A DNA stretch of 56,076 nucleotides, counting the filler, from Platydemus manokwari (Eukaryota), in the NCBI GenBank assembly GCA_037951405.1. It is 5 parts of 5 records of this genome, joined end to end, with 100 filler letters (N's around TTAATTAATTAA, not from the genome) between each part and the next. Parts side by side here need not be neighbours in the genome. Positions count along the whole stretch, not along the records: positions 1 to 9,931 come from JBBMOY011187877.1; 4 more parts are not named here. One strand, written 5' to 3'. This document shows, one piece after another, positions 841-28,077 of the stretch; positions within the stretch are counted from its first letter, which is position 1; each line of letters opens with the position of its first letter. Below the pieces are notes generated by a model. The model ran no database searches. It was not told where the DNA came from and was given only the letters and a program-made list of their open reading frames with translations. The position numbers were made by a program, and so were the translations under genes.

Positions 841-1687
841 CACATTCATTTTATTTGTCTCTGACAACTGAATTTTTTCTACATTACACTACTTTAGAAA
901 AAATTCCTAAATTGTGTTAAACAGCAAAATTGTTTTATATTTCATTTCGAAGCTCGTATTTAGTAGAAAAAGGTAGAAAAAATGTCTCAGATTTTCAGTA
1001 AGTCAAGGAACCACCGTATATCGAAGAGAGAGAAGACCTCAGCTTAAGGCCTTAGAGTCTATTATTGAAGAAATATTGAAGAAGTATCAACTTAATTATT
1101 CTCATTAAATATATGTTTTAAATGGAAATATAATACTATTTAGGATTACTTTTCATCTTTCATTTAACTAGTATAAAACTTGTACTTCCTTACAATCAGT
1201 AATTTAAAGGATTCAATCATTATGAGAACGAACTTTATAGGTTTCCATATTGTGGAAGACAAGGAGAAGATGTCCGTGGTTAAATGAAAACGATAGAAAA
1301 GAGTCAAATTTGAAAAAGATCGGGATAAAGTTTCGATATTCCATTTTTAATAAATTAAATATACAATTTAGCAATATTCCTAATCAGGATAATTTTCTGT
1401 AAATAAATCTTTGATTTCTAATCTTTCTTTATCAGTTAATTTACTATCAATTACTATAAATAAATTTACCGTTAGAAATGAAAAGCAAGTAAGATATTTT
1501 GAATTTTTAGATTAGTTATTTAGAAAGTTTTCAGAAATTAGCAGAGGAATTAATTTTATTTTTGATAATATTAGACCGATCAGGTTATTTCATTTTATTA
1601 ATTAAAACATTCAGGGAAAGAGTTTTCCGAAAATTTGTTCTAGAAGAATTAACTATTATTTAGATATTTGAGGATGCAATGCCCAAA

Positions 1688-1954
1688 TGTCCGTACGGGT
1701 ATATTAGTGTAGACTAGCACCTTAGTGTAGTGCGTTCGTTACTGTAGTCACGCACGCAAGTAAGTAGTATAGATCAGGAGTAGCGGACTTAATCCGTATT
1801 TAATTTCTGTGACGTAACTTTAATTTGGGCTAGTCTCTTTTTGTAAAATAGGGTTGTATATTATTATACAAATATAAATAAGTGTGCAACCTTGTTTTGT
1901 TTTTGGAATCGGATTATCAGCGAGAATTGTTGTGTTCTACACCCGGTAGACCCA
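1688..1954 (+). mobile_element. Possible solo LTR
   Basis: GC-richer island with TG...CA ends and imperfect inverted termini (TGTCCGTACGGGT ... ACCCGGTAGACCCA); no TSD found. Confidence 0.3.
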
Positions 1955-2559
1955 ATATATATATAATAGTATTAATAGGCAGTCTTTTGAACGTGTAATT
2001 TCAAAATACGAACGAATGATAGCGAGGGCTGGGTTTAATTACTGGCTATTAATACTACTTTTATTAAATAAAAACTTGTCTACATTTCCAAAAATAAAAA
2101 CAAATCATATACATTACATGCAAAGAGACAAACTAAGATCACAAAAGAGTCAAATCAAAATATCAAAATAGGTTCGCAAATTCACCACTACACTATTTTT
2201 TAATTGAGGAGAAACCTTTATATTAAATGTTAAAAATATACATTATGTCAAAAAAGTACCGGGAATTAATCATTTAAAAAACCCGCTTAAAGGTACTGTA
2301 TCCATCTGTTTTGTTGTTGTCAAAATCTAGGCAGGTTTTAAAAATCAAATCTCATTAGAAAATGTTCTCGAAAGAAAGTCAAATGTTTTGTTGATCAAAT
2401 CTCGAATGCTTGTCTTTAAATATTTTATTAATATCTCAATCCATCTAGAAATTAATTAAATCTTAAATTCAAATAATTGTTTCTTTTCTTGATATTTTGT
2501 TCAAAGAGGATTTTGCTAGCTTTCAAATAATTAGCGAATTTTTTCAACAAAGCGATCTT

Positions 2560-2960
2560 TTTATGTCTGAGAAACCAGCTAAAACAGACAAACAAACATG
2601 TTTTAAACAAATATTTAAAATTTCATGGGCAGTCTTAATCAGCCATATTTATCTTATTAAAACCACCAAAATACAAAAAATAAAACAATCGAAAAGAATA
2701 AAAAGCAGTTAATAGCAAAGAAAAAAAACAGAAAACAGAAAACAAATTCAAATTAACAAACAAAACTAAACCAACAACTAACTCCTTTATATAAAATCCA
2801 GCTAAAAACGGAAAACCACATAAATAGAATAAACTAAAAAAAACATTAAATGAAGCAAAAAATGAAACAAAAAATTTTAAAACGAATAAAAAGCGAAACA
2901 AATTTAACTCCTCAGACATATAATCTCAAATAAAAAAATGAACACTACCAACTATAAAAT
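2560..2960 (-). pseudogene. nad5: Nuclear mitochondrial insertion (NUMT), nad5 fragment
   Basis: ORF 2635-2919 contains LCGFPFLAGFYIKE (nad5 signature xxGxPFLxGFYSKD) and LTAFYSFRL; extreme T-rich coding-strand bias; truncated and embedded among nuclear TEs. Confidence 0.85.
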
Positions 2961-3667
2961 CATTTAGGAAACCACTAGGTTGCGTTAGAAGACTTAAGAA
3001 GTCCATAATTTATTTCGAAACAACTAGGAAGAGTGCGTTAGCCCATTTAAGAAACCACTAAGTTGCCCGAACTACTCGAAGTCAGTTAGAAGATTTGCTA
3101 GTCGACAGAACATGCCAATATCATTTGCCATTGCCAAGTAGTGAGTTAGATCATTTTGTAAACAACTAATTTATATCTATAGTACGTATCGTTCATCATT
3201 TTATTATAGAGCTATGCTCACAGACATCCTTGGTATTTGGTTTTAATCCAAGATAAGGAAGTATAAACAGCTATCCTCTGGAATTGTAAGCTTAGCCGTT
3301 GATCCAACATTTTTATTTGGTTTTTATTGTATTGCAAACTGTATTTTAATGTTATATATTTAATAAACGCTTAGTTGTAGAAAGAGTTACGTTGTTGATC
3401 GATATTTTGAGGCATAAAATAGTAAATGAGACTGATAGGATTAATTTACCGCTTGGATCATTGTTGCCAATCAATTCTATTACCATATAGTTTTGATTGC
3501 GAGGTGAATATAGGTATAGAAATACGGTTTAGTGAGGTGTACCTTGGGCTTGATTAGAACTCATTTGAGACTGATCGAGACAACAGTGACCCGTGAGCTA
3601 AATCATAATAGTAATTTATTGAGACTGATTAAAAACATAAAATTAACACCAAGCCCGAAACACGACA
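2961..3667 (+). mobile_element. 5' LTR (left end truncated) of an LTR retroelement
   Basis: Ends in ...ACGACA 2 nt before a PBS; AATAAA at 3362; internal repeats (catttaRgaaaccactaRgttgc x2, tgagactgat x3). Confidence 0.65.
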
Positions 3668-3669
3668 AC

Positions 3670-3687
3670 TGGTGCCCCAATTGAGGA
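3670..3687 (+). promoter_or_regulatory. Primer-binding site, elongator tRNA-Met type
   Basis: TGGTGCCCCAATTGAGGA versus the complement of metazoan elongator tRNA-Met 3' end TGGTGCCCCGTGTGAGGA (15/18). Confidence 0.7.
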
Positions 3688-4268
3688 AAACTCTTGTTTA
3701 AAATTAATAAAGTTTGAAAGCATAAATAGTTAACATCCAATGGTTTTCGAGTGAGAAAAATTCTTGATTAAAAATTACTAAAAGTTCGAATGTGTAAAAT
3801 TTGAAATAAATTATACATCAACTGTTAAACCCGAGTAAAATTTGATAAATTGAAATTAGGCCAAGGAGCTAATACTGATAAATGAAAGTTAAGCGATAAA
3901 ACTTTTGATAAATTTGATAATTAAAACGCGTATTATTTATTGCGTGAACCGGAGAGCTAGTTTAGCGACGCATAATAAGTATCATCGGTATATAAAATGA
4001 AGAAAAACAGATTAAAGTTTTCAACTTTATAGCAACAAAGTTAACAATTTGAGAGGTCTTAGAGGTCTACACCCTGCTCTAAGTGTCATTATTTAGTAAA
4101 GAGATTGATAACTTAATAGGTCTAATTTCGTAATAAGCATTGATTGTTCCAGAAAAGTGTTGAGTTTACTCCATGAATAGTGTTGATTAAAATCTGCAAA
4201 AAGCGTTATTAGACTTAGGTAGTTTGACCCATAGAGCGATAAAATTGATAATTTGAAATCTGCAAGGA

Positions 4269-5401
4269 GTGCATATGAATAGAAAAAATTCGATATTAAA
4301 GAAATATGATAGACAATTACGTAGAGCAAGCAAAAGCAATTTATTAGAGAATTTGGAAATAGTGAATAGGCATCTAAGCAAAAGTAGAAATATAAGTGAA
4401 ACTGAAAATTATAGTAGACATATTACCAGTGACAGTGAATTAGAAAATAGTAGTAAAGAAAATTATGGTAATAATTTTGAAAGGATAGAACCCAGTAATT
4501 TACCCGAAACAAGCGCCATAGAAAAAGATAGTAAAATAATTGATAGAAATAATTGTAAGGAAATAAGCACCCAAACCTATAGTAAAATAATTGAAACAGG
4601 CACCTAAGTTGATATAGAAAGTGAATTAATTAGAAATTGTAAAGCACCATTAATTAAAATGAATGAAGTAGTTATGATTAATAATAAAAATGTATATATA
4701 CCAATTAATCCCTATGATGGAAAACAATAAGGGTTTGATGACTTTTTCAATGAATAAGATGGACTGACTGTAGGTTGTCATTATATTTAAAATCATACGC
4801 GTTACAAACATTTCAAGGATTAGATTTTGGCGTAATTAAAAATTATAAGGATCTAGTAAGGGAATTAAAAAGCAAATCAGTTATGGAGGATGATGTACAT
4901 GAATTTTATGTAAAGCAATTTAATGATAGATATCAAATGTCTGGAGAGAGTGTTGGAGAATATTCAATGACATTGAAAGAATTAGTAAATAAGGCTTATG
5001 GCAAGTATGTATCTGTTGAGGGTCTTGAGCAAATAGTTAAAAGGGGAATAACACCCATATTAAGAAGTCAAATAGCATTAGCAGAATATAAATATTTCGA
5101 TGAGTTTGAACAAAAAACAAGGATAATTGAAATGATTAATGGGTCAAATAGTTTGTCAAATCATAATATAGGATATGGAATACCTGGAAATTATCCATTG
5201 ATAAGTCCAGTAACATTTAAGGGAAATAAAAAAGAGATACCAACTACTAGTAAACATAATATAGTGACTAAAGATGATGTAACATGGGAACAATTAAACA
5301 AAGTATTAACACAGCTTCAAATAAAAGATGATAATGTTAAGCAAAGCAAAACATATAATAATGGAAATTATTTTGATATGAATAGGAATTATGATCACTA
5401 G
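4269..5401 (+). pseudogene. gag: Retrotransposon gag (capsid-like), decayed
   Basis: INPYDGK, then FNDRYQMSGESVGEYSMTLKELVNKAY (Q-x-x-x-E-S-V-x-E-Y major-homology-like motif of Ty3/Gypsy Gag) and KRGITPILRSQI; broken by stops and frameshifts; downstream of LTR-PBS. Confidence 0.8.
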
Positions 5402-5949
5402 CAGAGGAAAGAAAAAAGAAGTGAGAAGAAGAACAGAAAAAATAGCTAAAAGAGAAAGAGAAATGAAAATTAATATAGAAAAGGAATTAGATACAGAAAT
5501 TACAAGTGTAGAAAATTCATGAAAAAAGACAGAACAAGAATAACAAAAAGAATTGAAAAAATTAGCAAAGGAAAAAAAGAATTACAAAAGAAATTAAAGA
5601 AATTAAGATAAAAGAAAGAGGATCACAATAAGGAATTACAATATGAAGAAATAGAATCAAGATATAGAGAAATAGATCATGATTGCAATGGAGAAATAGA
5701 TTATGATAGAATAAGGAGAACTGAATACAGAGATAATAGAAATGACGATCAATACTATTAGAAGAGGAAATACGAATAATAGAAATAATGATAGGGATAA
5801 TAGAAGTAATGACCGATATTACAGAAGAGAAGATAGAAGAAATAATGAGTATGAAGTGGAAATTATAAGACAGACATTAAGAAGAAATTCATATGCAAAT
5901 TCAAGTGAAGAAGAAGAAAAAAATTTGATAAAAGAAGATAGTTGTGAAT

Positions 5950-7400
5950 TATATACATGTAGCGAAATACTTGGACCACGTATAATGGAAACAATAATAG
6001 GAAAAGTTGAGAAAATACAACAATTAATTAAATATGAAAATTTTGAGAGAACCAGTGAGTTAATAAGAGAAATGCAATTACAAGCTAGAGAAATGAGGAA
6101 ATTAAATGAACAGGAAGAATTTGAGTTAAAATATTGTGGAAAAATAATTAGGATCAATACGGAATTACAAAAGCCGTTTAGATTAAACATTTGGACATTT
6201 ATAAGAAATAAGGAATACAAAATAAAATTTCCCATACATGCATGCACAAACATTAAGAAACTTAAGAAAACATAAATACAGCAATTAGAGGAAAAACATG
6301 GCATAGTAGCAGTGGACATGGTAATAATATTTAAAACAAAAGAGTTAGACGACAAAGAATATCTAATAGATACAGGATTTTCGCAATATGATCCGGATCA
6401 AATCACGAAATGTAAACGACGGAAAAACAAAATTATACGACAAAGCAGTTCAATGGGAACATTATAAAATAAATAAAATTGAGATAGAAGTTAAAATGAT
6501 AGTTAATATAGGCAATGAAATATTAAAAAATATAAGAGTAAAAGATACAGCAACGACAGATTACCTAAAATTTGAAATAGATCGAATTTGGCCATTTAAA
6601 AGAGAAGGAATTAGAAAAATGACTTATAAAGTAGATGTAGGAATGTTAATGAGAAAACAGGACCTTTATTAGGAATAACATTGGAATTAATAACAAAAGG
6701 AGTATTTATGAATTATGAAAAACAAATAGGATATTACCGAATAAGAACAAATCAGAAAAATAGGATAATAGCAGTTATGAGAACATGGAATGAAAGGATC
6801 ACTGGCGATAAAGATCATATTAAGTTACCAATATGGTTATTGTCTGCACCGGTATATCAACTAAAATTGAACATAAGGGGAAAGGAAGAAATAGAAGAAT
6901 TTAGAACTAGTGAAAATGCCTCAATTAAATGGTTTAAAAATTGGATATCTAAACAACAGGGATACCGCAAGAAAAATATATAATAAGATGGAAAAGCATA
7001 CCAAGAAAAATAAAATTAAAATATGAGCATAAGAGAAAAAAAGAGAATATTTGGAGGATATTGGACGATGATTATCAATTTTGGCACTATGGTATAGAAC
7101 CAACAGAGTGAAATAATACAGAAATAGGATTAATAAGTGAAGAAGATAAATATATAGTAAAAGTTGAAGTGTTAAATAGTTACCAGGAAGAAAAAGTTAA
7201 TAAAGTTAATAAAGAAAAAGAAAGAAGTAAAACATTTGAAGAGAAAAATAGAAGAACAATATATAAATAAAAGAGAATGGGGATTAAACAAAAAAATTAT
7301 GAAATATAAATAACGAACCTTATTAGAGGAAGAAGAACTAAAAAATGTGTTCTTAGAGGATAACATAAATGTAGTGACAATTAACATAATAGCCCCAATG
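5950..7400 (+). pseudogene. Tandem ubiquitin-like domains in the retroelement polyprotein
   Basis: Units include ...TNIKKLKKT*IQQLEEKHGIVAVDMVIIFKTKELDDKEYLIDTGF; ...ENASIKWFKNWISKQQG...WRILDDDYQFWHYGIEP; ...EVKHLKRKIEEQ...IMKYK*RTLLEEEELKNVFL. These follow the ubiquitin pattern TIxxVKxxIxxxxGI...LIFxGKxLEDxxxLxDYxI. Confidence 0.6.
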
Positions 7401-7983
7401 CCAAATATACATAAAACGATACCTTGGAGGTATACAATTTCGATGTATGTTGGGGATATAATGACATAAATTTGATAAGATGCGAAGAAAAGGAAGAGGC
7501 AATGAGTGATAAAATTGATAAATCAGGAAACACAGAAATGACAAAATGTAGGAAGAAAAGTAAAGATAGAAAAGCTAATAAACAATGGTCAGTAGACTTA
7601 GATGAAATAACGGATGAAGTAGAAAGTGTGGATGATAAAAGCATTGATAAAAAAGAGAAACATCAAAGAAGAAGAAGAAAAACGAAGTTAAAAATGCAGA
7701 ACATACTGAATCATCAGGAAAATATTTCATAAAATTATTTACGGAAACAAGAGAAGAATGCATACCTGGAAAGATGATAACGACATTGCAAACAACAATA
7801 AACCTAATAGATAATCAAATAATTGATAAGGATGAGGGAGCACAAATAATAGCAAATGAATATGAGAACGAAATAAATCAAAATGATGGATGGACTAAAT
7901 TAGTGCAATTTATGCTAGAGCAATTGGTGGACAAAAGAAAATCTATAGTTCTAAACGAAGAAAAGCAATTAGAGAAACAGTAG

Positions 7984-8878
7984 CCTCAACAAAAATCTAA
8001 ATTCACCACCATAGTTCAAACATTATTAACAATGTATCCAGTAGGATTGATAGGAGGAGTAGATGCGGGAATAGATGGTTTTGATTGTGGAAAACCACAA
8101 TGGGGACAAAAATATTCATTACTAGATATTGATAAATGCCCAGAGGCATACCCTGTAAATTTAACAAAATATATACCTAAGAAAATGTGATTCGTTTCAT
8201 AATAATAGAGAATAATAGAGCAATAATAGGCTGTCAACAACAATGTAATTGGAGAAAATTAAGGGATTTAAGTCAAATACAGGTCAAAAATGAAACGGAT
8301 ATAATAGAATTTATAATTAAGTGTCATCAAGGATTTGGTGTAAAATGTAAAATAGAGAAATTAGAAGAAATAACAATAACAGGAAAATGGGAAGATTTAA
8401 TAAGTCAAGAATGGAGAGTTAATTTCCTAATAATAATACAGTTAGCAAGCAGTAAACAAAAGACAATTGAAGCTATAAGACATACAAAAGCAATGATAAA
8501 AGATTAAAATCCAGGCAAAAATAAATGGAAATTTAAAGCACCAAAAGCTAAGGAGATAATAGGAATATCATGGAAATCATATACCAATAAGTTAACATAT
8601 CATCTCATAGCATAATGGCAATATTTGCAAAAATAGGAATTAATGGAGAAAAAGAAATTAAGTTAAATAATACTATACCATCTAAAACAATCATATTACC
8701 AGCATTAGGAACCCACGATATATCGTTCACACAGTGTTACGCTTATCCATATAAATCAAAATGTAATTGTGAAAAAAGTTTTAAATTTTGTACGACTAGT
8801 ACGGATAAGGTAATAATCAATGTGCCAGAATGGAAGTTATCAAAGATAATTAATAATGAAAATGAAATAGAAAATTAG
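7984..8878 (+). pseudogene. Env-like glycoprotein remnant (chuvirus/gB-type N-terminus) and downstream Cys-rich segments
   Basis: In frame after ORF 7774-7983: hydrophobic IVQTLLTMYPVGLIGGVDAG then IDGFDCGKPQWGQKYSLLDIDKCP, resembling the G[YF]DC...SLLD...C start of chuvirus-like glycoproteins; later fragments are Cys-rich. Confidence 0.5.
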
Positions 8879-9149
8879 GAAGTGAAAAGAAATAATTTAT
8901 TATAGACAATAGATAAAAGAATGGAAAAAATAAAGATGAAAAAGGAGAACGTCTTAGAGTAAAAGGAAAAGCGATTCAGTAAAGAAAAGAATTAGAATTA
9001 ATAAGAATAGAAAGAGATAAAATTATAAAAGATAGTTTACAAATTATAGAAAATGTCAATTTAGCAACTCAAGTAGCTAAAAACAGTAATTTGGCATGAT
9101 GTCTAGAGAGTTTCTAGAATTATAAACAAAAGAGTACAAGAAATAAACA

Positions 9150-9931
9150 CACAGATATGACGCATGCGACCTACAAAATCAGCATATAAGAGCAAGTAAA
9201 TATATTTTGATTGCACTTTATTATACACACATTAGTTTACACTATTAATTCAGCGAAACTTTTTGTCCGACGAAGCAATTATTATTGACAAGAAATCTAA
9301 GCGGATCAATCTTATTATTATTTACGAAGAATTTTGACGAAGCAATTTTATCAAATCATTTATTTACAAAGCATTTTGATTAACCAATTTTATTTGAAGA
9401 ATTATTCGAAAAATCCCGTTGAGTATCATTTACAAGAAGCATATACGAGTATATTTAATTCCGAATTCAACTATTTATATCTCGAAATCATGATGAGTAA
9501 AATTTTATACTTTTATTACGCGCCCACAGATATCTCGATAGCTGTGTGGTTGTTTTAAACTTATTTAAGTTCCATCTTATAACTTTCACTTTCTTTTTTA
9601 TCCACAGGAGTGTCTTGCCAATTAGTTAGGCACATCTGAATGTTCTACTGAGAGGTTCTGGTCGTCCACAATAGTATCTTGAAGTGTGCATTAAAATTTG
9701 ATTTATTAATAAACGTATTTTATCATCATTGTTTATTTAATAATTGATTTTAACATTTTCAGAAAGACTCATATTTACCGATATCTATAGTTTAAATATT
9801 ATTATTACTCGAGAGTGATTTAAACACTCCCTACATATACTGAGCGACAAGATTTTTAACCCGGTCTTAATTAGTATACATTAAGGCGTTTTCCCAATTA
9901 TTATTGTTGAATTATTAGTATAACTGATTAA
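9150..9931 (+). mobile_element. Possible LTR of a different family, cut by the gap
   Basis: Non-coding; pyrimidine tract + cacag acceptor at ~9607 and AATAAA at ~9708, same layout as the 2961-3667 LTR but not alignable to it by eye. Confidence 0.3.
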
Positions 9932-10031
9932 NNNNNNNNNNNNNNNNNNNNNNNNNNNNNNNNNNNNNNNNNNNNTTAATTAATTAANNNNNNNNNNNNN
10001 NNNNNNNNNNNNNNNNNNNNNNNNNNNNNNN
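9932..10031. other. Artificial assembly spacer (N44-TTAATTAATTAA-N44)
   Basis: 100-bp linker with stops in all six frames; the same linker occurs at 25647-25746, 35513-35612 and 46096-46195. Confidence 0.97.
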
Positions 10032-11214
10032 GTATAGAACATCCAAGAAGCCAACAAAATGAAGACTGTGTTGGTATAAATTAAAACAAAGAAAAGCATG
10101 CTTAAAATGAATTATTAAAAGATACACGCAAAAGAGAAATGAAGCATTTAATAATTACGAATTATAAATAAATTATATTTAAACTAAAATCATTCATATT
10201 CTTTTAACAATTTCTACCAGATCATTACTATGACACCTTTATGGTCCTCATAATGTTTTCTCATTCGTTTTTGTTATGCAGAAGAAGGTGAATGATATAC
10301 GATTAAGAAATACTCCTAAGTGCTTGTATTTCCTCTGCAACGAAAATTCGTCTTGGATTTTTCTTTCAATATAACTTCTTGACTTGCTTAAAGGTTCAAG
10401 ATAAACATTATATGTATTACAAGTACTTGTTCATTGAGTTATAATTCTATATCAATTTAATAAACCGTCCACATTCGAAGGCACATACTACTTGTTAACT
10501 TTTGTACATGGTTCCTGTGTTACAGTTTGTTCACTGCTTCTATATTTGTCGATTTTTTAATGAATTCTTGTTGTCATTATTTATTTTTTCATTTTTATTT
10601 ATTTCTTTTGTTTTGTTTGTACTTAAATACCTTTAATTTATCTTCAACACTTTCCCTTAGGCAATAATTAACCGAAAATTATAACTTGTTATCCATAAAA
10701 TCAATATCATACTTTATTTAATCCATAAAACCAATTTATAAAAGTTTAAAAAATCTAAACTAAAATGAATTTCCACAACTTGTTTTCCCAACATAAATTG
10801 ATCCTGAAAAAACAAACCTGCTTACTGTTAATAATTAAAATTATTTATGAAAATCTAAACAACATGATGATGAACAAAATGAAAATCAATTATGGCGAGT
10901 AAGTTGTCATTTATTGTTAGCAAAATTTTTTAATGCTAATAATCACTGTTGTATATAAATTGTGGTTTTAGTTGAGTTTGATTTACTTGTATTTCGTGTA
11001 CTTGATGTTGAGGATTTGCTGTAATTTTGTATTGATGCCAGGAATTTTTTGATAAAAAGTTTGAGATTTGAATTCAGAAATGGATGGTTGTAAGATCTCA
11101 AAAAATAGGAGAAAATCTGTCAACTGAGTTTATTATTCTATTGGTTGTTGTTAACAGGTTTTGCTGTCAAGGATTTCTCTTGCTGGAAATAAAGACTGTG
11201 GTCAATCGCTAACA

Positions 11215-11884
11215 CAGTGGTTTTCAACTTTTTTGCTGGAGAGGAGCCCCAGGGAAACATTCCTCTGGAAACACTGCTACAATTTAATTGTTTTATGCAA
11301 AAAACAGTATCTATTTTTTTAATGAAATAAAAGAATTTATGTTCAGAGTATTGTTCATGTTTGAATAGACTAAATTTATTCTTATCAAAAACTCAATGGT
11401 AAATTTGAGACTGGTGCTTCTTGCACAACTCTTTAAGATTCGGTTTTGTTTTTGACAGACACACTCGAAGTTCATCTCCCACAGACAGTAATTGTGCTCA
11501 TTTCTTGTGTTTGATTATTGTCACAGCTGAAAATCTTAAATCACACAAATATGAGGTTGAAAATTGAGCAAGAAGTCGTAGCGAGTTCTGGTCAATTGTA
11601 GGATATTCCTTTTCAACAAGCAACCAAAATATATAAAAGCTAACCTAATAGTGGTAGGAAAAAGTGATCTTTCAAATGTAGTGAGTTTAATTATGTTAAA
11701 TTTAGTATATTTAAACAACAAATAATAATAAAATAATAAAAATAATAATAGCAATAATAATAATAAAATATTTTTTCGAAATTGAATTTAATATGATGCT
11801 TATTTGTTTGTTGTTCTAATTTAGAAATTTAGAAATTGCAGTAATCCTGGAGTGTACTGGTGGAACTCTGGTTGAAAATCATTG
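11215..11884 (-). mobile_element. Non-autonomous hAT-Buster/Charlie element (670 bp)
   Basis: TIRs CAGTGGTTTTCAAC / GTTGAAAATCATTG; 8-bp TSD cgcTAaca / ctcTAgca (6/8, central TA typical of Buster); minus-strand transposase C-terminus GFSAVTIIKHKK*AQLLSVGDELRVCLSKTKPNLKELCKKHQSQIYH* ending at 11393. Confidence 0.9.
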
Positions 11885-12715
11885 CTCTAGCATAATAAAT
11901 AAATCATAAACTTTGCTAAATTAAATCCTTGTTAGGAATACAATAGAATGTATTCCAATGCCAAACGAAAATTTGTGATTTGAATGTGGTTTAATTGACA
12001 CCTACATCGATAGGAACTAATGATTCAGTAATGTGTTCAAAAACAATGAGAAATAATAGTGATAAAATTATATTTTATAAGAGATATGTGCAAATACATA
12101 ATTAAAACGCCTTCGAATTAAATCTTGTATAAAATTTCCCTAACTATATCTGAACTGTAAAAATTGAATTGTATAGCCGAATTATAATAAATTTAGAAAG
12201 TTTTGCATTGTTTCTTAGAAGCTTGTTTTCGGTTCTTCCAGACTGATACGAAATATATTGTAATTGGAAACTTCTTGATGAAGATTCCAAGTCCAGATTG
12301 CGTAAGTGGCCTTTGACTAATTTTTTGGTTTGGTCCAGAAGTTGCTTTTCTATTTGGTAAAACATTCCCTCAGATGACTAGTTTGCATTGTCTCTTGCCA
12401 ATTTGAGCATTTTACTTAGTTATTTGAGCTCTATTCAATCTTAGAATAAATATTATTTCTTTTTATTCCTATTTTGAATGTTCTAAAGTTTTGTTCTGAG
12501 TATAAATGGATTACACAAAGAAAATATCAAATAATATTCCTGGGTTTTAATGAATGTCTAAAATAGATGCACTTGATGGATATTATGGGTGTTTGGTGAT
12601 GATTTATAATTTGAATCAACCAGATACACTCAATGATCCAAATGTTATTCAATTCTAGTCTGTCAAAAGCACATTAATGGATATCCACCAAAAATCTGAC
12701 TCTTCACAGGAATAA

Positions 12716-13661
12716 GGTTACGGTTATAAATAATGAACGTGGATCAGTAAATAAAAACTAATATGATAAAAATACTTTTATTGATGAACTTGTATACAAA
12801 TATAAATTGATAAAATGATAAAATTAAAAGAGTAAGCTTTATGCCCTGAAGAATGAAAATCGGCGGAGGGTCTACATGCTCCGAATATAAACTAAAGAAA
12901 TGATAGCTAAGTTTAAAAATCTACAAATTCTGACGACTTTGCAGATGGTAATTCACTGTTTACCAACTCATCTCCTGTCGAAGATTGACGGAAAAACAAC
13001 GATAACGTATATGCAATTAAGGCTTACCATGCTGAATGAGGATAATTAAAATAAATTCCAATGCTTGCGAACGTAAGAGAAAATGAATTCCTATGCTTGC
13101 GAAAGTACGATAATTATGAGTTCCACTTCTTGTGAATGAATTGGTTCTGAATCCTAATACGTGTAAGCTGAATGAAATCTGAAGTCCACTGCGGAAATAA
13201 TGAATAAAAGTTTGTACGAGAAATTTTTGTGCTTTTTGTGTCTTATGGAATATGTTTATATAGTTATTTGTATTTATATAGGTTCTGTTTCATGCTTGCT
13301 TATGTTTCTGTAGGTTCTGCTTCGTGCTTCCTTATATTTATGTAGGTGCTGTTTCGTGCTTGCTTATGTTTATGTAGGCCATGCTTGTGCGTTGGCCTTT
13401 TCTGCTGATTTGATTTATTATTGCTGTGGGCTTTGATGAATAAGCCCTTATTCTACCAAATTGGTTACTGTTGACTAATACTAGCTGCTGATCAATTCCA
13501 TATGTTGTTATGGAATTTTGTGTACTAATGATTAATTCAATTTGGAATTTTGTTTTTAATTTGTAATTTTTATGTAATTTTTTATTATTATATTATCTGT
13601 ATTATATTATATGTACATCTAATTATATTATGTGTATGTCTATATTATATGTATATCCAAC
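12716..13661 (-). mobile_element. Probable solo LTR (~950 bp)
   Basis: Minus strand starts TGTTGG, has AATAAA near its end and ends ...CCGTAACC; non-coding, with internal tandem repeats; no TSD found. Confidence 0.4.
13281..13376. repeat. 32-bp tandem repeat, 3 copies
   Basis: ggttctgtttcatgcttgcttatgtttctgta / ggttctgcttcgtgcttccttatatttatgta / ggtgctgtttcgtgcttgcttatgtttatgta. Confidence 0.9.
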
Positions 13662-13824
13662 ACACTGCAGAAAGAAACAATGAAAAATCAAACGATAAAC
13701 CTCGAACAAGAGCTCTTAAATGAATTAAACTAAATTGAATAATCTGACCTGTAAACAACTTGGAACAATAAAATTACCTTTATTGAACTTGATGTAGTCT
13801 ACTAAATGAGATTTTGTGTAAACC

Positions 13825-14400
13825 TTTATTTGGCTGCTATAAATGTTTGGATTTTATATAAGCAAACAACAGGATAAAGGATATCGCGACAAGAGGAACT
13901 TGCCACCGAATACCGCGATATACATGAACAAGAAAAAATGGAAAATATGGCGAAAACTTCAGCAGATTCCACTACAATTTGTGAAAGACGAAAAACGTGT
14001 CAAATTGGATTTGACAAAAAAAATAAAACCATAAACATTAGTTCTACATGTAAAAAATATGTTTGTGGAAAATGTTTGCGGGAGAGAGCCGTCACCTGTA
14101 AAAAGTGCGACAACGAAAAAAATTTTTATTTAGTTTGAATAAGGACACGCATGTAAATTACTGAAGTAACATATCATTTTTCAGTTTCGAGCCTTCATTC
14201 TAAAAATGTACTCCTGAAGCCCGAGAATAAATGTTTTTTAATTATTATATGATAATTATTTTGTGTTTATTGTTTATACTAAATTCTATATTAATTGCAA
14301 TTAAATGTAAAAGACTATAATGTTTATTTCAAAATCGGTCATTTGACCGCCATCGGTAGAAATAGGTATATATATAATATGTCGGTAGGTTTAGTGTTAA
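13825..14400 (+). mobile_element. piggyBac 3' end (transposase C-terminus, TIR, TTAA)
   Basis: LAAINVWILYKQTTG*RISR and Cys-rich RKTCQIG...CKKYVCGKC...CKKC; terminus gtcggtaggtttagtg followed by TTAA at 14397-14400. Confidence 0.9.
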
Positions 14401-14929
14401 AAGCAACGCAATTGATTCGTTTGGCTACTCGAATTCTAGTTCGAAGAAGAAATATGTGATATGAATGTAAAATAAAATATTAAATATTTCAAAACCATCG
14501 GAATAAGAAAGTGAATATCATCAATTTGTATCTGAATTAAAAGTTGAAACTGAAAAAGTATAACAGTGGATTTCCAAGAAATGGAATATGGGTGACAACT
14601 GTGGTTTATGAAAAATTTTATTCCGTCAAAGTCCATATCAGATGAGAGAATGATATTCGATAATGAAATAAATACGGATAGAGCATTCTCTGAAAGATGG
14701 GATAACATCTACAAATTTCAAGATGAAATCCTTGTGTTGGGATCCCCAACTAACACAATTCAAACCAAACAAAAATATATGTTAAAAATTAAGTGAAGTT
14801 TTAATGCTGAAAATAATAGAATATTTGTTTGGAAAACATGTCATATGGAAATATATTATTTTGTGTTAAAAAAGATTATGACTTTTGAATCCAACATAAA
14901 AAATGAAGAAGTGTTGTGTTGTTCGCTGT

Positions 14930-17900
14930 TGCCAGACAGATTGGGGGATAACATCAAACACTTTATTAAAAAGTTTAATCGATTTTTTGAGGCTAGGAAA
15001 ATCCCAAAGTACGTCCAACACGCTATCGTTTAATGTAGTGGAAGATATTGTCTCACAAAATAACTAAAACAAAGTTAACTTTCCTCATGGCGCATTGTTC
15101 AGATGTGGAGCTTGAGAAATTAAAATGAGAGATATTGAGGAAGTCGATCAAATAAACGAAACCGTAAAAAAGCTCGATGAAGTAAGAAATAAAGAAAGAG
15201 AAGTAAACACAATGGGAGCAGAAGAATGGGCCACGATAGTCAGAGCACAACTAAAACACAGGCCTTTAGAATGAAAGTTAGATAATAGGACTTACTTAAA
15301 CTGCAAAAAACTAGGGCATATAGCACGAAATTGTAAAAGCGAGAAAGTCGTGACATGCTACGACTGTCACTAAGTAGGTCACATGACAAGATATTGTACA
15401 AATGTCCTAAAGTGCCTTAGATATCAATACCGAGAACATCAAGAGCAAATGCTGAGAGAAGGGGACAACAAAGGTCAAACTACAAACAAGGGACATCGAT
15501 AATTCAGCGAAGGTCTGATCACAGACAGAGGACCAATAGAATAAGTGAAAACAGACAGAGTTTCAACGGAAAAAATTACAGAATGGTGAACCTAAATAAT
15601 AGACAAGTAGCGGTGGTCGAGTAAAAATCGGATTCAGAATACGACGTAGAACACTCAAAAGAGAATGCGCCGACTCCCTTCGAGTGTATCGGGGCAATTC
15701 ACAAAACAGTAAATCTAAGTCTGAGCAAGATACCGAGAGTATAAGTGGTAATATTGATATTTATAATACAAGTAATTTAAAGCAAATAAACAAAATCAAA
15801 AATATAATAAACAAGCAAGGCTGTCCCCAGAACAAAAAAATTGGAAAGTGGAAATACAATTTGCAAACGGTAACAACGATGATATAGAATCAAGAAATAG
15901 AGTACAATAGAAAGTTGTAAATTTTATAAAGAAGAAGATGACTAAAAAGGTAGTAGAAAAACAAGGAGACGAAAAATTAGTAACGATCAATGAGTTAAAG
16001 CTTCCCCAGAACGAGCATAAATATAAAAATAGAGAATAAAGAATTTGAATGCTTGTTAGACGCGGGCTCATGAGTTAATTTTATAGATAAGACAATATTT
16101 GAGACACTCGAACAAGTAGAAATCGAATATGAAATTTTACGATTTGCTAACAACAGTATATTAGAGGTTGTTGGTAGAATAAGAACAAAAATCAAGTTCA
16201 AGACAGCGAGATTTGGTAGGATTGTAACCGATGAAGACAGATTCAAGAAAAGAAAAGAATGTCTTGCGGTGAAAGAAGGATCTCGTTTATGGGGAAGATT
16301 AAAAGCAAATAATAACGCATTCATGGCAGGTCTTTGAAACATTGGTTGTACAAAGTTAGTAAAATACAAGATTGTTACAAACGGACCTCGTAGACAACCA
16401 ATAAATTTAGAAGGAAAGGCAGAAGAGGCAATCAAGAATTAAGGAGAAAACAACATTATAAGAAAATGCAATTCACCGTGGAATACACCACTTAATAACG
16501 GAGAGACAAGCGTTTCCCATGCCAAATATGGAAGACCTATTAGACACTTTACACGGCTCTAAGTATTTCTCGTTAGTAGACTTGGGAAATGCATATGATC
16601 ATATTATCAGGTAGGGCTTCACAAAGAATCACAAGGAAAAACGATAATCTCGATGAAAGAGGAGCAATGCTGTTGTACATGGATGCCATTTGGGATAGCA
16701 ACAGTACCGGGAACATTTCAAGAATTGATGACAAAAATATTATTAGATATGAGAGATAAAGAAACCATGGCACATTTAGACGACATATTAAAAACGATAG
16801 AGAACACTATGAAATACTGGAAGAAGTAATAAAAAGAAATGCAAGACAATGCATCAATTTAGAAAAATGTAAAATAATGAGAATGAAGAAGGCATTAAGA
16901 GAGGTCCAAGTAAGATTGAAACAATAGAAAAATTTGAAAGAAAAAAATGTTTAAAAAACCTACGAAACTTTCTTGTAATTTGTGGACATTACAGGAGATT
17001 TATAAAGGAATACTCAAAAAAATCAAGAGCACTAAAAGAATTGTGTGGTAAAAATAGTGAAAAACTCATTTCAAATGAAGCATGCAGGAGTTCATCCTAA
17101 ATCTCGATGCAAGTTTCGACACAATAAGAGCGATATTATCGCAAAGAGATAAAAAATAAAATGAACGAATCATTGCGTACGAATCTCAAGCAATAAGCAA
17201 ACATGAGAAAGATATATTACTTCTGTCAGCATTTCAATCACTATTTGTACGGGAATCACATTCATGCTGAAAACAAAGAACCCAATAACTCCACAATTCC
17301 ATACATGGCTAAATTATGTAAGCAACCTGGATATACACCTGGATATGCTTTCAGGGAATACCTGTACGACATGTTCCCAATATCAAACGAAACACGAGAA
17401 CCCAAATACGGGAAAAATGAAGACCCGGATATTAACAAAAATGACAAAGAACATAGGAAAAGAATGATAGATTAAAAACGATGAGATAGAAATGATAAAA
17501 ATAAGGATAGTTCGAACGCGAAGTAGTAATTTCATGCTCGACAGAGACACAATAAAACTGAAGAAAACAAAATTTGGATATCAGTAGTGTAAAGACGAGA
17601 AATGATAGAACACACACAGGAACGGAAAAAGTCACGCAATATATAAAAAAATTTTGAAAGGGAAAGAAAATCAAAGTTATAACCCAGTGTGAACAATGCC
17701 AAACAACTAAACTGACAACAATGAAAACGAAGGAAAAACCAAAGTTACTGCATCGACATTTTCGGACCGTTGAGAAAAACAAATAGAGGAGAAAAATTTT
17801 ATAATTGCAATAATTGACCAGTTCAGTACATACATAATACTGACACCCATAAATAAACAAAACAAGGAAACAATAGAAAGAGTGATCCAGAATCAATGGG

Positions 17901-18095
17901 TATTAAAATACGGAGCATCCGAGGAAATACACGCAGATTGTGGAAAATGTTATGAATCACAGAGAATCAAAGATATGGCGTTCGAAATGAGAACGCAGTT
18001 GATATTCTCAAGTCCTTATCATCACAGCATTAATGGAATCATTGAACAACAATTTCGAATAATTAGGGATTACACAAACGTGACGATAGAAGAAA
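14930..18095 (+). mobile_element. Decayed Ty3/Gypsy internal region (gag-pro-RT-RNaseH-IN)
   Basis: CCHC knuckles (CKKLGHIARNC, CYDCH*VGHMTRYC), protease LLDAGS, RT (FPMPNMEDLLDTLHGSKYFSLVDLG, MPFG, HLDD), integrase (EEIHADCG, SSPYHHSINGIIE) in Gypsy order; many stops and frameshifts. Confidence 0.9.
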
Positions 18096-18289
18096 TACAA
18101 AATAATAGAATATTTGTTTGGAAAACATGTAATTTGGAAATATATTTCTGTGGTACAAAAATTACGAATTTTGACTACAACATAAATTGTGAAAAGAGTT
18201 AGCAACTAACAGCGAACATGAAGGTAAAGTTGTTTTTGCAAAAAGATTTATTAGAATGGGATAAATATAATAGGCAATTTATAAATGAG

Positions 18290-18719: not shown

Positions 18720-21700
18720 CATCACACTTCGCATTTTATCTGTTTCATCGTTGGCTCCCAATCTTTGATCTGTAATGGTTTGATTTTTTCGGCACTTATC
18801 AGCCTCAGTGGAATTGCCATTGGAGGTAGGATGTTGAAATATTATGCAATTCATTGCGATTTTATGGAATTCCAAGTTTTCGTAGGATATCCTACTGTGT
18901 ATTGTAGTCTTTTCTTCTTAATCATATCCCAGAGAGCTGAAAATTTTTAAATTTTTTGTTGTTAGTCTCTTTGATGAGTTTGGGTTCGTCCATTGGACAT
19001 TTGATATGCAGCAGCATAATTGTAAGCTTTCTTTAGTCAATCATCTGTATCTCTATTCCCAAATTAGATTCAATGAATTGACATTGAGTCCGTATTATTT
19101 ACAACATAATTTGCTATAATTTTCATAATTTGATCGTAGTAAAGACATGTGTTTGTGACTCTGTTGAGTAGAGGCACTTTCTACATGCCATTGTTAATGT
19201 GTCTGTCTTCACCTTGTGGATAAATTGAGACTATTTTCCTCCACATAGGGCTCGTTGTTCCGTTGAGACAATTGCAGCGTCCGCTTTAAATTCGCTTGTT
19301 CCAAAACATTTGATATGATTGGGCAAAGCATCTCCTTAACCTTTTTGGTGCTTCTTTTATTCTTTTACACTCTATAATTTCTGATTTTGCATAATTAAAC
19401 TCATTGGATAGAATATTTTGTTCGATTCTAAGCATTTAGATGCTATTGATAATTTCGGATCTCACAGAGATGTGTAGTTTCTTTGCGACATATTTAATTG
19501 ACTTTCTAACTTTTATGTGTTCTTGAAGTGCGGGAGTTCACTATGAAATGAAAGGCCAACGAAACAAACAAACAAAAAACGAGGTGAGGGATATCCCACC
19601 GCCTTGAAACGAAAATTTTTATGTTGAAATAAAATTTAGCATTTTTTTTAAGCCAGTCGAATATTCCACTTTGGTCTTTGGCCATGATTTTTGTATTTGC
19701 CGCTTTGTTCAGTGAGTGGTATGCCGCTTGTCTGGTAACTTCGTGTTTGCTGATGAGTAAATAGAACGCATGTATGATGGATCGGATGGCGTAATCCTCT
19801 GACATGTTCTTAAGATCGCAACCGCTATTGGATTTTGACGAATATAGATAGTTGGTGCTGCAGTACTTAGGAATACCCAACACTGTTTTCAGATTTTTGC
19901 GTGCCATCACGTCGAATTCCAATAGTCTGGTAAATGTGATGTAATAGTTCCGGAGGTGTGTATAAAGTACTGAAATGAGCTTAGCTTTTGCTACGGTAAG
20001 AGTATTGATTCTGTTAGCTTTTTCGTGCTCTTTTCAATCTCAATAAAGTTAATTCCTAGATATCGATAGTGATCTTCCAGTTTGGTGAGAGATATCCTTT
20101 GCCTGTCAAGGTAGACATTACTCAGGATGGAGCCACTATTCGTGACGTGCAGATTTCCACATTTGGAGGCTTTAAACCGGAAGCCTATTAATTGTGCAAG
20201 TGTTGATGCATCATTGACTATTTCACTAATTTCTCTGATTAGTGCGAGGTAGTCTGCATAGGTCAGGCAGGATATCTTGGTGGTGGCTATTAGTAAACGC
20301 CCAATTTTGTTTTCTTCCATTCTCACAAGTATGGGGTTGATAGTAATATTAAAAAGTAATATTGAGATTGGGCATCCTTGTCTGATCCCGCACTACATTA
20401 CGAATACATTTGTTTCGTAGTCACCGCATTTATATGTTGTTCGGCAGTTTCTATACAGGCATTTGATTAATTTGAGTGAATGTTTGTCAACACTCGAATG
20501 TTTTAGGATGGTGAACATGGATTTAAAATTTACAGATGGAAAGGCTTCCTTGATGTTCATAAATGCCTTTTTTGTATGTTTTTCGAATAAAGGAAATTAT
20601 GCTCTGTGCAACTGTCTGTTGGCCCTTAGCTTTTCTGCAGATGGTGTATTAGGTTGTAAGTCTCTACCAATTCTCGCAACTGTAAATAAAGGATCGTTGT
20701 TACCAATATATAGCAGCAATAAGTCCCCGTGACCCGATTTTTTCATTTTGTCGGTCCTTTATCGGTTTGTGGATCATTGTTGTTGAGTATGTCCGTCATT
20801 CCTCAGGTATTTCAATATTCTTTATGCATATTTTGAATAGAGCATATAGCATCTCTACAGTCGGGTCTGCGTAAAACAAATCTCGGTAGTTAATGTTGTT
20901 TCTTCCAGGTGAGGTCTTTCTCGGTAAGCATTTGATGTATTGTTTCGCAGTCTGTCTTGCTAAAGGAAAAGGTTGGCTCTTGTTTAGTTAGTTTCTTTAG
21001 TTCGCAGAATTGTAAAACAAGGTTTGTTGCATGGTAGTTGGCATTCATGGACAACAATGTGTGGATTTTATTTCTTGGTGTAAAGCTCCTTTATTTTACA
21101 TTTCTTTGGCAACGCATTAGCATGGATGGTTCTCGTTATGATTTCAAATGCCGCCGATAGTTCGTTGTTAAATAAGTTTCTCATTTTGATATCGATTTTT
21201 CCTCTGCTTATATCATTGTGTGCACTTTCTAAAAAAGACACCCTGGTGTTTAATTGTGGACATGCTTTTTACAAATTCACAGATGATTTAAAAAGTTTAG
21301 TTGATTGTTTCTTCTTTAAGATTCTTGGCTAAATTGTTCGCTGAGCTACGTCTACTTTTCAGGGCATCTTTAGGGGCCTCGTTATATATTGCGAGTAGTG
21401 GTTCTTCTCTTTTAATCTGTTTTCGGCGGTCGTGGAATGCTGCATTCGCATTCTCTTTTATTTTTGATATGTTGATTTTAGTTAACTTGCTATTTTTAGT
21501 GGTGTTACGGATGTACACAAATATCAAGGGTCCGCTTTCTTCAAAGTTGGATTCCAGGAGTCTGTCTTCATACGCTTCATTGATTTCTAGCTTATTTTTC
21601 AACCACAGAAGATGGGACAAGTTGTCTTTTAAATTATTTAGTATTTTAGTTTTATCATGGTTTGTTGAATTTCCTTCTGGGTCTATAAAGGCAATTTTGT

Positions 21701-22750
21701 TGTTGCTGATATTTGCAATTATGGGGATTCATATTTTGCACATTAGGAGTATAGGATAAAAGATGATTTCTCTGTTTTTAAAGTATTTGAAAAAAAGGTT
21801 TTCTTTGATTTCCTCGATGTTGTTAGCGGCTAACGATTTGTTTATGGTCGGTTCTAAAATTAGATAATTTCGACATCGAACTTCTTTTGAGCAGAGGACG
21901 ACTATATATCTCTCAAAAAACAGAAGGTGGTCATGTTAGTATGTTTCAATATCTGAGTTTTCTACCTGGTCCCCTGCGATATTTATACTGAATTTACTGA
22001 AGCCGCTAATTTTTGTGTCTGATCTGATATTTTCCACGTTATGCCTACTACATGTCCGCATACGAGGGCTCTTCAGTCGTCATTATCTGGGATTGACGAT
22101 TCTGGTAGCTATGTCATTCATTGAGCGTTTAATTTGCCCAACTGTCGCAATGTTTCATTGTGTTGATTAATATGGTAGCTTTTGCAGTTGCTCTACACAA
22201 GGACGCATTTTGGTTTCCTAATGGGTCGACAAACTCAAACCTTCATTTTATGAACCGACTAATAGAGTCCAATAAAGATTGTTGATGTTGATTGGAGTGA
22301 TTATGAGGCTGTATTTCTTGAGAGTATCCCGGTGTCCACTATGTCTAGGTTATGAAGAATAGTAGCTTCTGTGACATTGGATTTGAGGTAGTATAATATT
22401 TTTGTTTTGATGTTTCTAGTTATGTAATCGTCTATGTTATCTCCGGAGAACGAAAGAGAATTACATTAATGCAGTGAGGGCGTTCTTGTTGTTCTACCGG
22501 ATTTGCCTTAAGTGCTACACCACCAGTCTTGTTTAGTTAATCGGGGTCTTAATTTAATGTTTATCTGTAAATTTAGGAAATTTCATGATGGATCTTAGAG
22601 GCTTGTTTTTCGGCCTGGAATGTGATTCAGATTTCTGCTAAATGGCGAAGATCCATTTTAACAGGGCATAATCAATCCATTCGCAAGGAGCATATTTTCT
22701 TTTTACGGTAATATTCAAGAAAACGAGGAATTTTTGCATCAGAGCGGATT
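18720..22750 (-). mobile_element. Decayed R2-group (NeSL-like) non-LTR retrotransposon
   Basis: RT GIRQGCPISILLFNITINPIL and CLTYADYLAL (~20250-20390), YRYLGI, C-terminal knuckle CRKCLYSTESQTHV (~19150-19190), and an upstream Ulp1-like protease segment (~21500-21780); no APE domain seen. Confidence 0.8.
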
Positions 22751-23379: not shown

Positions 23380-23680
23380 ACAACCACAACTATTTTCCTA
23401 GCTAGTGGTGAACGATTGAAATGTTGAAATTCTTGGCAAGCTTTAGCACTACTCTGGTACACTATTACTATAAACACTCTATCCGCAAATGAAAATTTAA
23501 AATCACCAGCTGCTTCCGCCATATTATAATAATTCAACTGATTAATAAGAAATAAGAAATAAAGTATATTAATAAGTGAATGATAATTAATATTCATGAG
23601 TATAAATACGTGAGTATAAATTATATTGTGTTTTGTTGTTTTATTTTAGTTTTAGAGACGGAAACTTATGAATCGCACGG
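23380..23680 (-). mobile_element. Tc1/mariner-superfamily element, 5' fragment (same family as 40953-41823)
   Basis: TIR ...tttagagacggaaacttatgaatcgcacgg + TA; MAEAAGDFKFSFADRVFIV aligns with ORF 41228-41680. Confidence 0.85.
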
Positions 23681-25949
23681 TATATTTTATAATCATACAG
23701 ATAAAATAATCATTTTTATACATCGATAATTATAATCAATCAATGTCCTTAATCAGTAAAGATGATTTCTAATTCAGTGTCAGAATCAATAAGTTCCACT
23801 ATATTTGTATTGAATTAAATTGGACTTGGAAGTTTGGGATTTTTCTCAGGCATTTAGGTACACAATCCAGCACCCGTTTCTTCTTATTTTTCTTCAATTT
23901 CTCCAGGCCCTATGTTACAGTCCATTGTTGCCATGTGTTCTGAGCTTTAGTTTCGTTATTATTCTCCCTCTCTGTCAAACCCATATTTTTTCAATATTAT
24001 GTCTTTTCTCACCGATTCTGTCATGTCATATTTCTTCGTCCACTGTTCACATGGCCTAACTGTCATAGAGATTTTCTCAACATCGGATGCATCATTAGTT
24101 TATCTTTCTGAGAATAGTGCCAGCTTGCCCGTGTCAAAAGTACAAACATATGATTTATACTTTTTATTTTTTAATTTTCAATTTCCAGCGATATTTCTGT
24201 CATTGAATTATCTTAATATTTTAAGCAAATTAAAATTTTGATTACCGATTATTTAGTCAACTATACCGTGGCTGGGATAAATTTTATTACAAAAATCTTT
24301 TGAATGAAGTTAATTCCACCAATTTCTGACAACATATAATTTCTGTGGACTATTTATAGCCTACTTGTATGAGTATAATCTCTATCAAATATTCAATCAT
24401 CATTGCAAAAGGAGGGTTGCTGGTCAATATGGTAAAATTCTCCAACCAATTTAAAAAAATTTGATTAATTTAAAATATCACCATAAAGAATAATGGTTGT
24501 CCATACTCCATAATTTAAATTTAATGTGTTTATAGTAAAGTATTTTCCAAAAAACACGAACACACACAATCACTTTTGTTAATACCCACCTATTAGAAAC
24601 ATTTTTTTCAATTCTATTAAGTGACTCCGGTGCCTTTCTCGATAAAACTGGTAACATGGCGACATTACATTCATCTTTAGACAGGTGACTCAGACGCCTA
24701 TTGTATCTATAAAGGTAATTTATTAAGAGATCTATTTCCATTATCGCTCTATAATGCCAAAACAACAAAGACAATTTAATTTATCAAAAGTAAATTGTTT
24801 TGAGTTGAAATTGATTTCCTTTTAAATCATTTTGAAATTCTTTGTGGGAAAAATATTTGTGTTCTTTCATAAAATAGATAAAATTAACTAAAAATCTATC
24901 CAACTGATATCGAAAAATTTCAACCTGTATTGGAAACAAATTAGATTAGTGGTTCGACAATTCTGAAAAGAATGTCACCCAATATAGTTATTGAATGAGA
25001 TATAAATTTATCCAATACATTAAAATCAAAGTTTTCAGCAAATCTTACGTTAGTTAAAATGAATAGGTTGATATTATAAAGGTAATGAAAAGAATCACAT
25101 TGATTAAAATCGGACTAGCGGATATACAGTTATTAGTCAAGGACATCCTTCCAAGCATTTGACTATTTCATAAAAATCCAGAAATTTTATGCATTTATTT
25201 AATGAATATCATTTGATATTGGATAAATAATCAGGAAAAATAGTAAATTTATTGCATACCTCAGTAAAAAATTTCGTTACAGGAATACTTATACCAAATC
25301 AATGGTAAGATTCTTCGAAACCACGACTTCCTAAATGTTTTTAAGTTAAGTTCTGTGACATATAATTCCATACGACGTTATTATATTACTATTTATAATT
25401 ATACCTTCTGGTTATAACTGATTATTTTTAAATTCAATTTCTAAATTTAACCGATCAATGTGAATAATCCATTTTTTATAAATTATTTTATTGATGTTGA
25501 TTTTATTTTCATGTGAAACTTGATTTTGGGTGGGGAAAACTTAATAATAAATCTGCTAACAGCCATTCATAGCAAGTTAAACCGATTTATATTTTTATTA
25601 AAATCTAATGATAAAATATTTTATATTCATTTTTTAAAAAGCATCANNNNNNNNNNNNNNNNNNNNNNNNNNNNNNNNNNNNNNNNNNNNTTAATTAATT
25701 AANNNNNNNNNNNNNNNNNNNNNNNNNNNNNNNNNNNNNNNNNNNNCAAAAATTGTGGTTCAAAATGAGTAGTTGAAATCATTAATAAGTCATTTAAATG
25801 TTCATCAGACAACCGTGACCTGTTCGTGTGTTTCATAGTAAGCTTGGCGGGCCCCTGGTTTAAGTTAAGAAAAGAGGTCTTAAAATAAAATTTTTAATTT
25901 GTTGAGTGTATTGCAAAAATCTATATAGTTTATTTAATAAAATTCTTTA

Positions 25950-26910: not shown

Positions 26911-28077
26911 CCAGATCCATCTCTATAACCTTAAAATTTTATTTCATTGATTTTTATTTTTGGTAATTGCCATTATTTATTTCAAACAATGATTTATAAA
27001 ATTTAAAATTCAATGTTGAGATGTGATTAATTTCGTGATAAGATTAGTGTGATGTCATTTATGGGAAAAAGTCGAATAAGGAAGATCAATCGAATATCTC
27101 AATTTTAAAATTAATTTCACCGGTTTTAAACTAAATTAAACAGGTATTACCAATTAATAATTTAAAAAAATTAAGAATCTAATTTAAATATTATCTTTAT
27201 TCTCACAATTAACGATTTATTTATTTAAAACTAAATATGACTGGAATTTACAAATGATGTATTTGTCTTTTTAAAAACAAGGAAACTCGAGTTACTAAGT
27301 GAAGAAATATTTTGAAGTGAGAAATAAAGTAATTTCAATCCAGTGAAATTATTTATTGGTGGCCTTAATCAAAACATTTCTGAGTGTGATTAAAGAAATT
27401 GTGTTATGCAAAATATTTTAAAATCAACAGGAAATTAACGAAGATATTACTGAACAAGATGTGTTTTCTACATAGTTGACAAATGAAAGATTGTAAGAAA
27501 ATAACAATCAAAATGTTGAGTCTAAGTCCTCTTATAAGTAAGGTTATTATCTAAATAGAGCCGCGGAAAATATTTTAAAACACTCATTATTAATCTTGAA
27601 AACTCTTCAAGTATATGTTTATAACTGCTTCAACTTAACGGCTCGGTCTTTTTTTCTAATCTGACTCTTACTCTAATACTGGTACACTGAGAAAAAACAA
27701 ATGCGTTTTTCTGATTAAGATGTATTTATATTACAATTTGTACTAAATATAAACCTTGTGAAAACACAAATTTCAATAAAATTAAGTTAGTAATACGAGG
27801 ACCTAGTCCTGATACTTATGTTGAATACTTTAGCTCACACTATAATAACCTATTTTACTAATTAACACACTGCCAATACAAAAGTATCTTCATAATAATT
27901 ATACTTCCGTACAACTACACTTATTGCTGGACTTACTAGTTTAACAAATAGTATCTTACTTTTTTGTAGCGTATATTTGAATGACGACCAAAGGAATGGC
28001 CACCAAGATCTCCAGACCTCACGATATTGGACTTTTGGCTTTGGAGCTATATCAAAGATCGAGTTCATGCAATCCAT

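Follow-up and report, generated by a model that had tools for sequence, protein, structure and literature searches.

What kind of retroelement combines a gag and the start of an envelope gene (env) with no detectable polymerase gene (pol)? The question is raised by a stretch of DNA of 56,076 nucleotides from Platydemus manokwari (GenBank assembly GCA_037951405.1), hereafter the window, in which five parts of the genome are joined; in the first of these (JBBMOY011187877.1) such an element runs on the plus strand from about position 2961 to an assembly gap at 9932. An earlier note on this DNA, which described an element with a long terminal repeat (LTR), had proposed either the structural-protein partner of a bipartite retro-system or what a deletion had left of a giant element. 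The second proposal is supported, and the domain order allows the giant to be named: the element probably derives from a giant gypsy element of the Burro type (described in PMC6431247) by internal deletion, was non-autonomous and is now dead. The observed grounds are the order of the domains, an env reduced to a stub, a sequence that lacks pol as far as the gap, many breaks in the reading frame, and an end of the open reading frame (ORF) and a 3′ stretch that are common to other copies. The features of the element are:

2961 to 3669, plus strand: putative 5′ LTR, so called from its position; non-coding and multi-copy, with the primer-binding site (PBS) directly behind it
3670 to 3687, plus strand: PBS; the best of five published primers is elongator tRNA-Met
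3688 to 4274, plus strand: non-coding leader, stop-rich in every plus-strand frame (z +1.6)
4275 to 9180, plus strand: a single long ORF, now decayed (about 1,630 codons), whose end is placed by composition (about 9100-9200)
4760 to 5131, plus strand: gag capsid-like domain (Pfam Retrotrans_gag, E 0.006, below cut-off)
5403 to 5760, plus strand: Lys/Glu/Arg-rich stretch (43-55% of residues) with no profile match
6201 to 6377, plus strand: ubiquitin-like domain (Pfam ubiquitin, E 0.0065, below cut-off)
6475 to 7400, plus strand: candidate additional ubiquitin-like repeats, recognised by eye, with no Pfam or PDB support
7720 to 7910, plus strand: Bcl-2-like domain (BH1-BH2 part), aligning to the metagenome proteins P0001 and P0002
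7990 to 8187, plus strand: env stub, comprising a signal-like hydrophobic stretch and the ~50 N-terminal residues of a fusion glycoprotein of chuvirus type (Monjiviricetes)
8181 to 9180, plus strand: decayed ORF tail of about 330 codons, coding-like (z -2.7 to -4.3), with a charged end and no transmembrane stretch
9181 to 9931, plus strand: 3′ non-coding stretch, common to other copies and meeting the gap at 9932-10031

The env start is the most informative part of the ORF. When 7651-8187 is searched against 1.84 billion proteins, four matches are obtained (E 5e-6 to 2e-4), all of them unnamed metagenome proteins (P0001 to P0004). The env start is common to all four, and in two of them a Bcl-2 domain is fused ahead of it: P0001 and P0002 share with the window a junction in which a Bcl-2-like domain and a hydrophobic stretch lead into the beginning of a fusion protein of Monjiviricetes type. 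P0003 is itself such a fusion protein, and P0004 carries gag, full env and protease in a single frame; both are PF24664 proteins, and the stub is 56% identical to P0003 over 41 residues and 41% identical to P0004 over 59 residues. However, P0003 and P0004 run on into a long env, and P0004 further into protease, whereas the homology of the window is limited to 7993-8169 and stops at about 8170-8190. Neither the later env (residues 55-304 of P0003 and 610-1200 of P0004) nor the protease part of P0004 is detected: none of 18 frame tests exceeds z 1.7, against 28.5 for the stub as control. After 8190 there is no membrane anchor, the top 19-residue hydropathy being about 1.1 compared with 1.95 for the anchor of P0004. 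Thus, of the env-like part claimed in the earlier note, the start stands at 7990-8187, but it is a stub that lacks about 600 of some 650 env residues.

The Bcl-2-like domain directly before env was absent from that note. On its own the window piece (7720-7910) has no Pfam or PDB match. P0001 and P0002 match Pfam Bcl-2 at E 0.012 and 7.7e-5, and when the window piece is combined with P0001-P0003 into a joint profile, the PDB matches are almost exclusively members of the Bcl-2 family (best 60 of 67 matches, best E 0.011).

The ~5 kb behind the PBS had been described as A-rich, coding-like sequence on a single strand, and this description holds. The region 4276-9180 is 48% A; its least-stop path on the plus strand costs 42.5 against a shuffle mean of 118 (z -16), and the minus strand has no coding signal (z -0.7). 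The ORF, whose first in-frame ATG lies at 4275, is interrupted by at least nine frame switches and 20 stops. No protease (PR), reverse transcriptase (RT), RNase H (RH) or integrase (IN) is found by Pfam in six frames of 3700-9300 or in 15 pieces, and no pol by Pfam on either strand of 3700-9930 or on the plus strand of 10032-14900. The positive control for both the pol and the zinc knuckle searches is a distinct, decayed gypsy-type element on the plus strand of the window (14950-18200), where the same read-through Pfam search recovers RT, RNase H and integrase, and a zinc knuckle is matched as well. Regular expressions for pol motifs missed protease and RT in this control too; the absence of pol therefore rests on Pfam. 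With this working control, the claim that protease, RT, RNase H and integrase are missing between gag and the env-like part is confirmed. Its premise, that pol is expected there, is wrong: the env of Burro sits in frame before pol (PMC6431247). Because env precedes pol in this type, the missing pol between gag and env is what one would expect. The real loss lies behind the stub, where the greater part of env and the entire pol are missing.

The gag identification stands. Besides the match to Retrotrans_gag, the gag is matched by that of P0004 (26% over 132 residues, E 2e-12). The Lys/Glu/Arg-rich stretch that follows may be a coiled coil. Of several ubiquitin-like domains claimed, one stands (6201-6377), which also resembles ubiquitin variants in the PDB (E 0.02-0.6), but it is the only one of five candidate units in 5970-7400 with profile support. 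The other four have no Pfam match, and their joint profile has no ubiquitin match. Two of the candidates resemble each other (6475-6660 and 6855-6986, z 4.3, one of 45 unit pairs), and the unit at 5970-6176 forms helices in a low-confidence single-sequence fold whose model is unusable (mean predicted local distance difference test score, pLDDT, 36). Unlike the window, P0004 has no ubiquitin-like or Bcl-2 match between gag and env. Word-based protein searches gave nothing for gag or for the Bcl-2/env alignment; searches with the locus in viral and metagenome contigs gave no match, and atlas searches no usable one.

Burro (GYPSM1) elements, known from dugesiid planarians, are gypsy-like LTR retrotransposons of giant size (PMC6431247). 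Their polyprotein comprises gag with knuckles, Smc-like, MATH, Ubi2/SUMO-like and BCL2 domains, env, PR, dUTPase, RT, RH and IN; the env is related to mononegavirus fusion proteins and lies in frame before PR (PMC6431247). Decayed fragments of Burro have been reported in one planarian species (PMC6431247), and Burro elements together with an A+T content above 70% in one planarian species (PMC11410931). The element of the window resembles them in having one long ORF in which Retrotrans_gag, a putative coil, ubiquitin-like, BCL2-like and env parts follow in Burro's order, and in occurring in many copies in an A+T-rich host. In contrast, its ORF has about 1,630 codons compared with 4,873-5,140 in Burro; the env of Burro is whole between BCL2 and protease, whereas that of the window is a stub of ~50 residues; PR, dUTPase, RT, RH and IN of Burro have no counterpart in the element up to the gap; two or three CCHC knuckles follow the gag of Burro and none was found here; and Burro exceeds 25-30 kb with paired LTRs, whereas the present element meets a gap and a second LTR is not seen. 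It behaves like a Burro-type derivative that is non-autonomous, but a classification as Burro proper is not warranted: knuckles, a whole env and pol were looked for and not found. P0001, P0002 and P0004 indicate that elements with env before pol occur outside the described Burro set as well.

If this reading is right, the parent polyprotein would have been ordered gag, coil, ubiquitin-like, BCL2, env, PR, RT, RH and IN. With its near breakpoint some 50 residues inside env, a deletion would have taken the remaining env together with the whole of pol. The stub would thereby have been fused to coding sequence from farther along the same element, either the tail of the polyprotein or an accessory ORF. 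With its LTR and PBS in cis, the deleted form could have been copied and integrated only by the enzymes of an intact partner, and its reverse transcription would have been primed by elongator tRNA-Met. The present copy decayed later and makes no long protein.

The putative LTR contains an AATAAA at 3362; its start, set at 2961, is provisional, as repeat cover begins near 2790-2865, and a second copy is found nowhere in the window, so that the LTR as such is not borne out. The stretch 9181-9931 was considered as the 3′ LTR and ruled out (local alignment score 29 against a shuffle mean of 27); it contains no polypurine run of 11 or more, and 9181-9930 has no coding signal (z +0.2). The PBS-like sequence TGGTGCCCC, which starts at 3670, is the sole copy on either strand of the window. 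Compared with the published primers (PMC1084362, PMC7744096), it agrees with the elongator-Met PBS at 14 of 18 positions, nine of them contiguous, whereas Ile and Lys1,2 reach 12, Lys3 11 and initiator Met 7 of 18; all other 18-mers of the window agree with the elongator-Met PBS at 11 positions or fewer. The earlier preference for elongator over initiator tRNA-Met thus holds among five published primers. An attempt to derive the isotype from viral contigs was rejected, as all ten of the ten matches were not tRNA genes.

Other copies are visible in contigs from one public run, which is possibly the source of the window itself; they are copies in the same genome and not independent evidence. No RNA run is among the public runs listed with this stretch. 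On 1500-9930, 3,606 contigs align, 2,624 of them less than 95% alike. Summed contig depth, which does not equal copy number, is 1,145-5,759 across 2910-9677 compared with 12-20 for contigs of the element's own locus, and it is 26 in the flank at 2346-2627. The whole stretch is repeated, on both sides of the env break. Diverged contigs bridge 9059-9329 and 9093-9316 and chain to 9751 (seen in the 8 matches listed of 945). They cross the ORF end, and therefore this end and the non-coding stretch behind it are a property of the family and there is no private cut at 9150; the element end that had been set there is not upheld, since paralogous contigs continue to at least 9751. The depth is uneven, with 160-420 at 8935-9039 and more than 9,000 at 9040-9109, a pattern that suggests several subfamilies. 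Still higher values are observed at 9845-9930 (40,000-82,000) and about 6,400 at 2064-2345, where more high-copy repeats lie; the former probably caused the gap behind it.

Whether the deleted form itself multiplied, rather than being private to the present copy, is close to an even question. More doubtful, though possible, is the fuller picture of a multiplied mini-Burro, in which hundreds of non-autonomous copies without env ectodomain, pol or knuckles, their gag fused in one ORF to a Bcl-2-like domain and an array of as many as five ubiquitin-like units, would have ridden on full-length giants while supplying host-modulating proteins.

Several points weigh against the deletion reading. The element meets the gap at 9932, which could hide pol. 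The segment behind the env stub could not be assigned, so that the distal breakpoint of the deletion has no position: 8181-9180 has no match in Pfam, atlas or word-based protein searches, its single-sequence fold is unusable (mean pLDDT 38), and a fold search gave no match at E 0.001. Among the matches listed, no contig spans the junction near 8185. Every direct Pfam match of the element lies below the curated cut-off. The link to Burro is drawn from domain order and unnamed relatives, and not from an alignment to Burro or an RT tree. A CCHC zinc knuckle is found in none of the six frames of the element, although the scan recovers one in the control gypsy. Likewise, Burro's CCHC knuckles, MATH, BIR and ankyrin parts are not detected by Pfam and the knuckle scan, whose sensitivity is reduced by decay.

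One alternative is an autonomous Burro-related family with a naturally short first ORF, whose env would have shrunk to a stub and whose pol would lie in a separate downstream ORF inside the gap. The ORF end and non-coding stretch shared by other copies agree with such an arrangement, as do the lack of a polypurine tract and of a second LTR before the gap and the shifting of domains between polyprotein and accessory ORFs in Burro-like elements (PMC6431247). However, the plus strand at 10032-14900 is without pol (coding test z -1.8), the sole relative that reaches past env (P0004) has its protease in frame right behind a full env, and the gag has no knuckle behind it. On balance this arrangement is unlikely.

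A chimera, in which recombination or a nested insertion put the 3′ part of some unrelated repeat behind a Burro-type 5′ half cut in env, would account for the abrupt end of the env match, adjoined by a 10-nucleotide tandem repeat (8201-8229), for the different frames of stub and next segment in the present copy, and for the uneven depth within the tail. Yet strand, A-richness and the stop-poor signal continue unchanged over the junction, and the depth is of the same order on either side (4,913 and 2,280), which renders a chimera quite improbable.

A partner supplying Gag and Env to a pol-only element of a bipartite system, as the earlier note had it, is barely credible: a multi-copy, pol-less sequence with a single long ancestral ORF holding gag and an env start would suit it, but the env is short of its ectodomain and anchor, there is no nucleocapsid knuckle, env ahead of pol is the usual Burro order (PMC6431247), no pol-only partner is seen and the copy is broken throughout. 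The gypsy element at 15-18 kb was considered as that partner and ruled out; its gag bears a separate knuckle, and at the DNA level it is not similar to the element.

The proposed Burro-type derivative is comparable to the non-autonomous LTR elements TR-GAG and LARD, described from plants, which carry gag or no domain and lack RT, RH and IN (PMC6022998, PMC6431247). As in these, a PBS and gag occur without pol and enzymes would be needed in trans. Unlike in these, the gag of the element is fused to ubiquitin-like, Bcl-2-like and env-stub parts, and the LTR pair by which they are defined is not seen. No description of a pol-less Burro derivative was found in the literature searched, which lay outside the original Burro paper and its supplements; these may describe one.

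The surroundings are A+T-rich, animal-like DNA crowded with decayed transposons and interrupted by four gaps. The gaps (9932-10031, 25647-25746, 35513-35612 and about 46096-46195) are 100-base placeholders, and the central TTAATTAATTAA in the three gaps read reflects assembly convention rather than biology. Neither the window nor its first 12 kb contains a match to a tRNA or an Rfam family. A cysteine-rich reading on the plus strand at about 13900-14110 looks by eye like the end of a piggyBac transposase; it has no Pfam match. On the minus strand, a remnant of a non-LTR retrotransposon occupies 19500-21730 (RVT_1, E 2e-6 at 19991-20389), and an ORF at 41228-41788 with weak helix-turn-helix matches is likely a Tc1/mariner-type transposon, to which copies at 23422-23685 and 28027-28350 are related.

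The locus is ordinary in being a dead relative, shortened by deletion, of a giant element already described. For element calls it is a caution, as any element whose env precedes pol will show gag and env with no pol between them. Should the deleted form prove common to many insertions, it would show which of the Burro-type cargo domains (ubiquitin-like, Bcl-2-like) outlasted the loss of envelope and enzymes. Nature would thus have tested whether such cargo is of use to the element.

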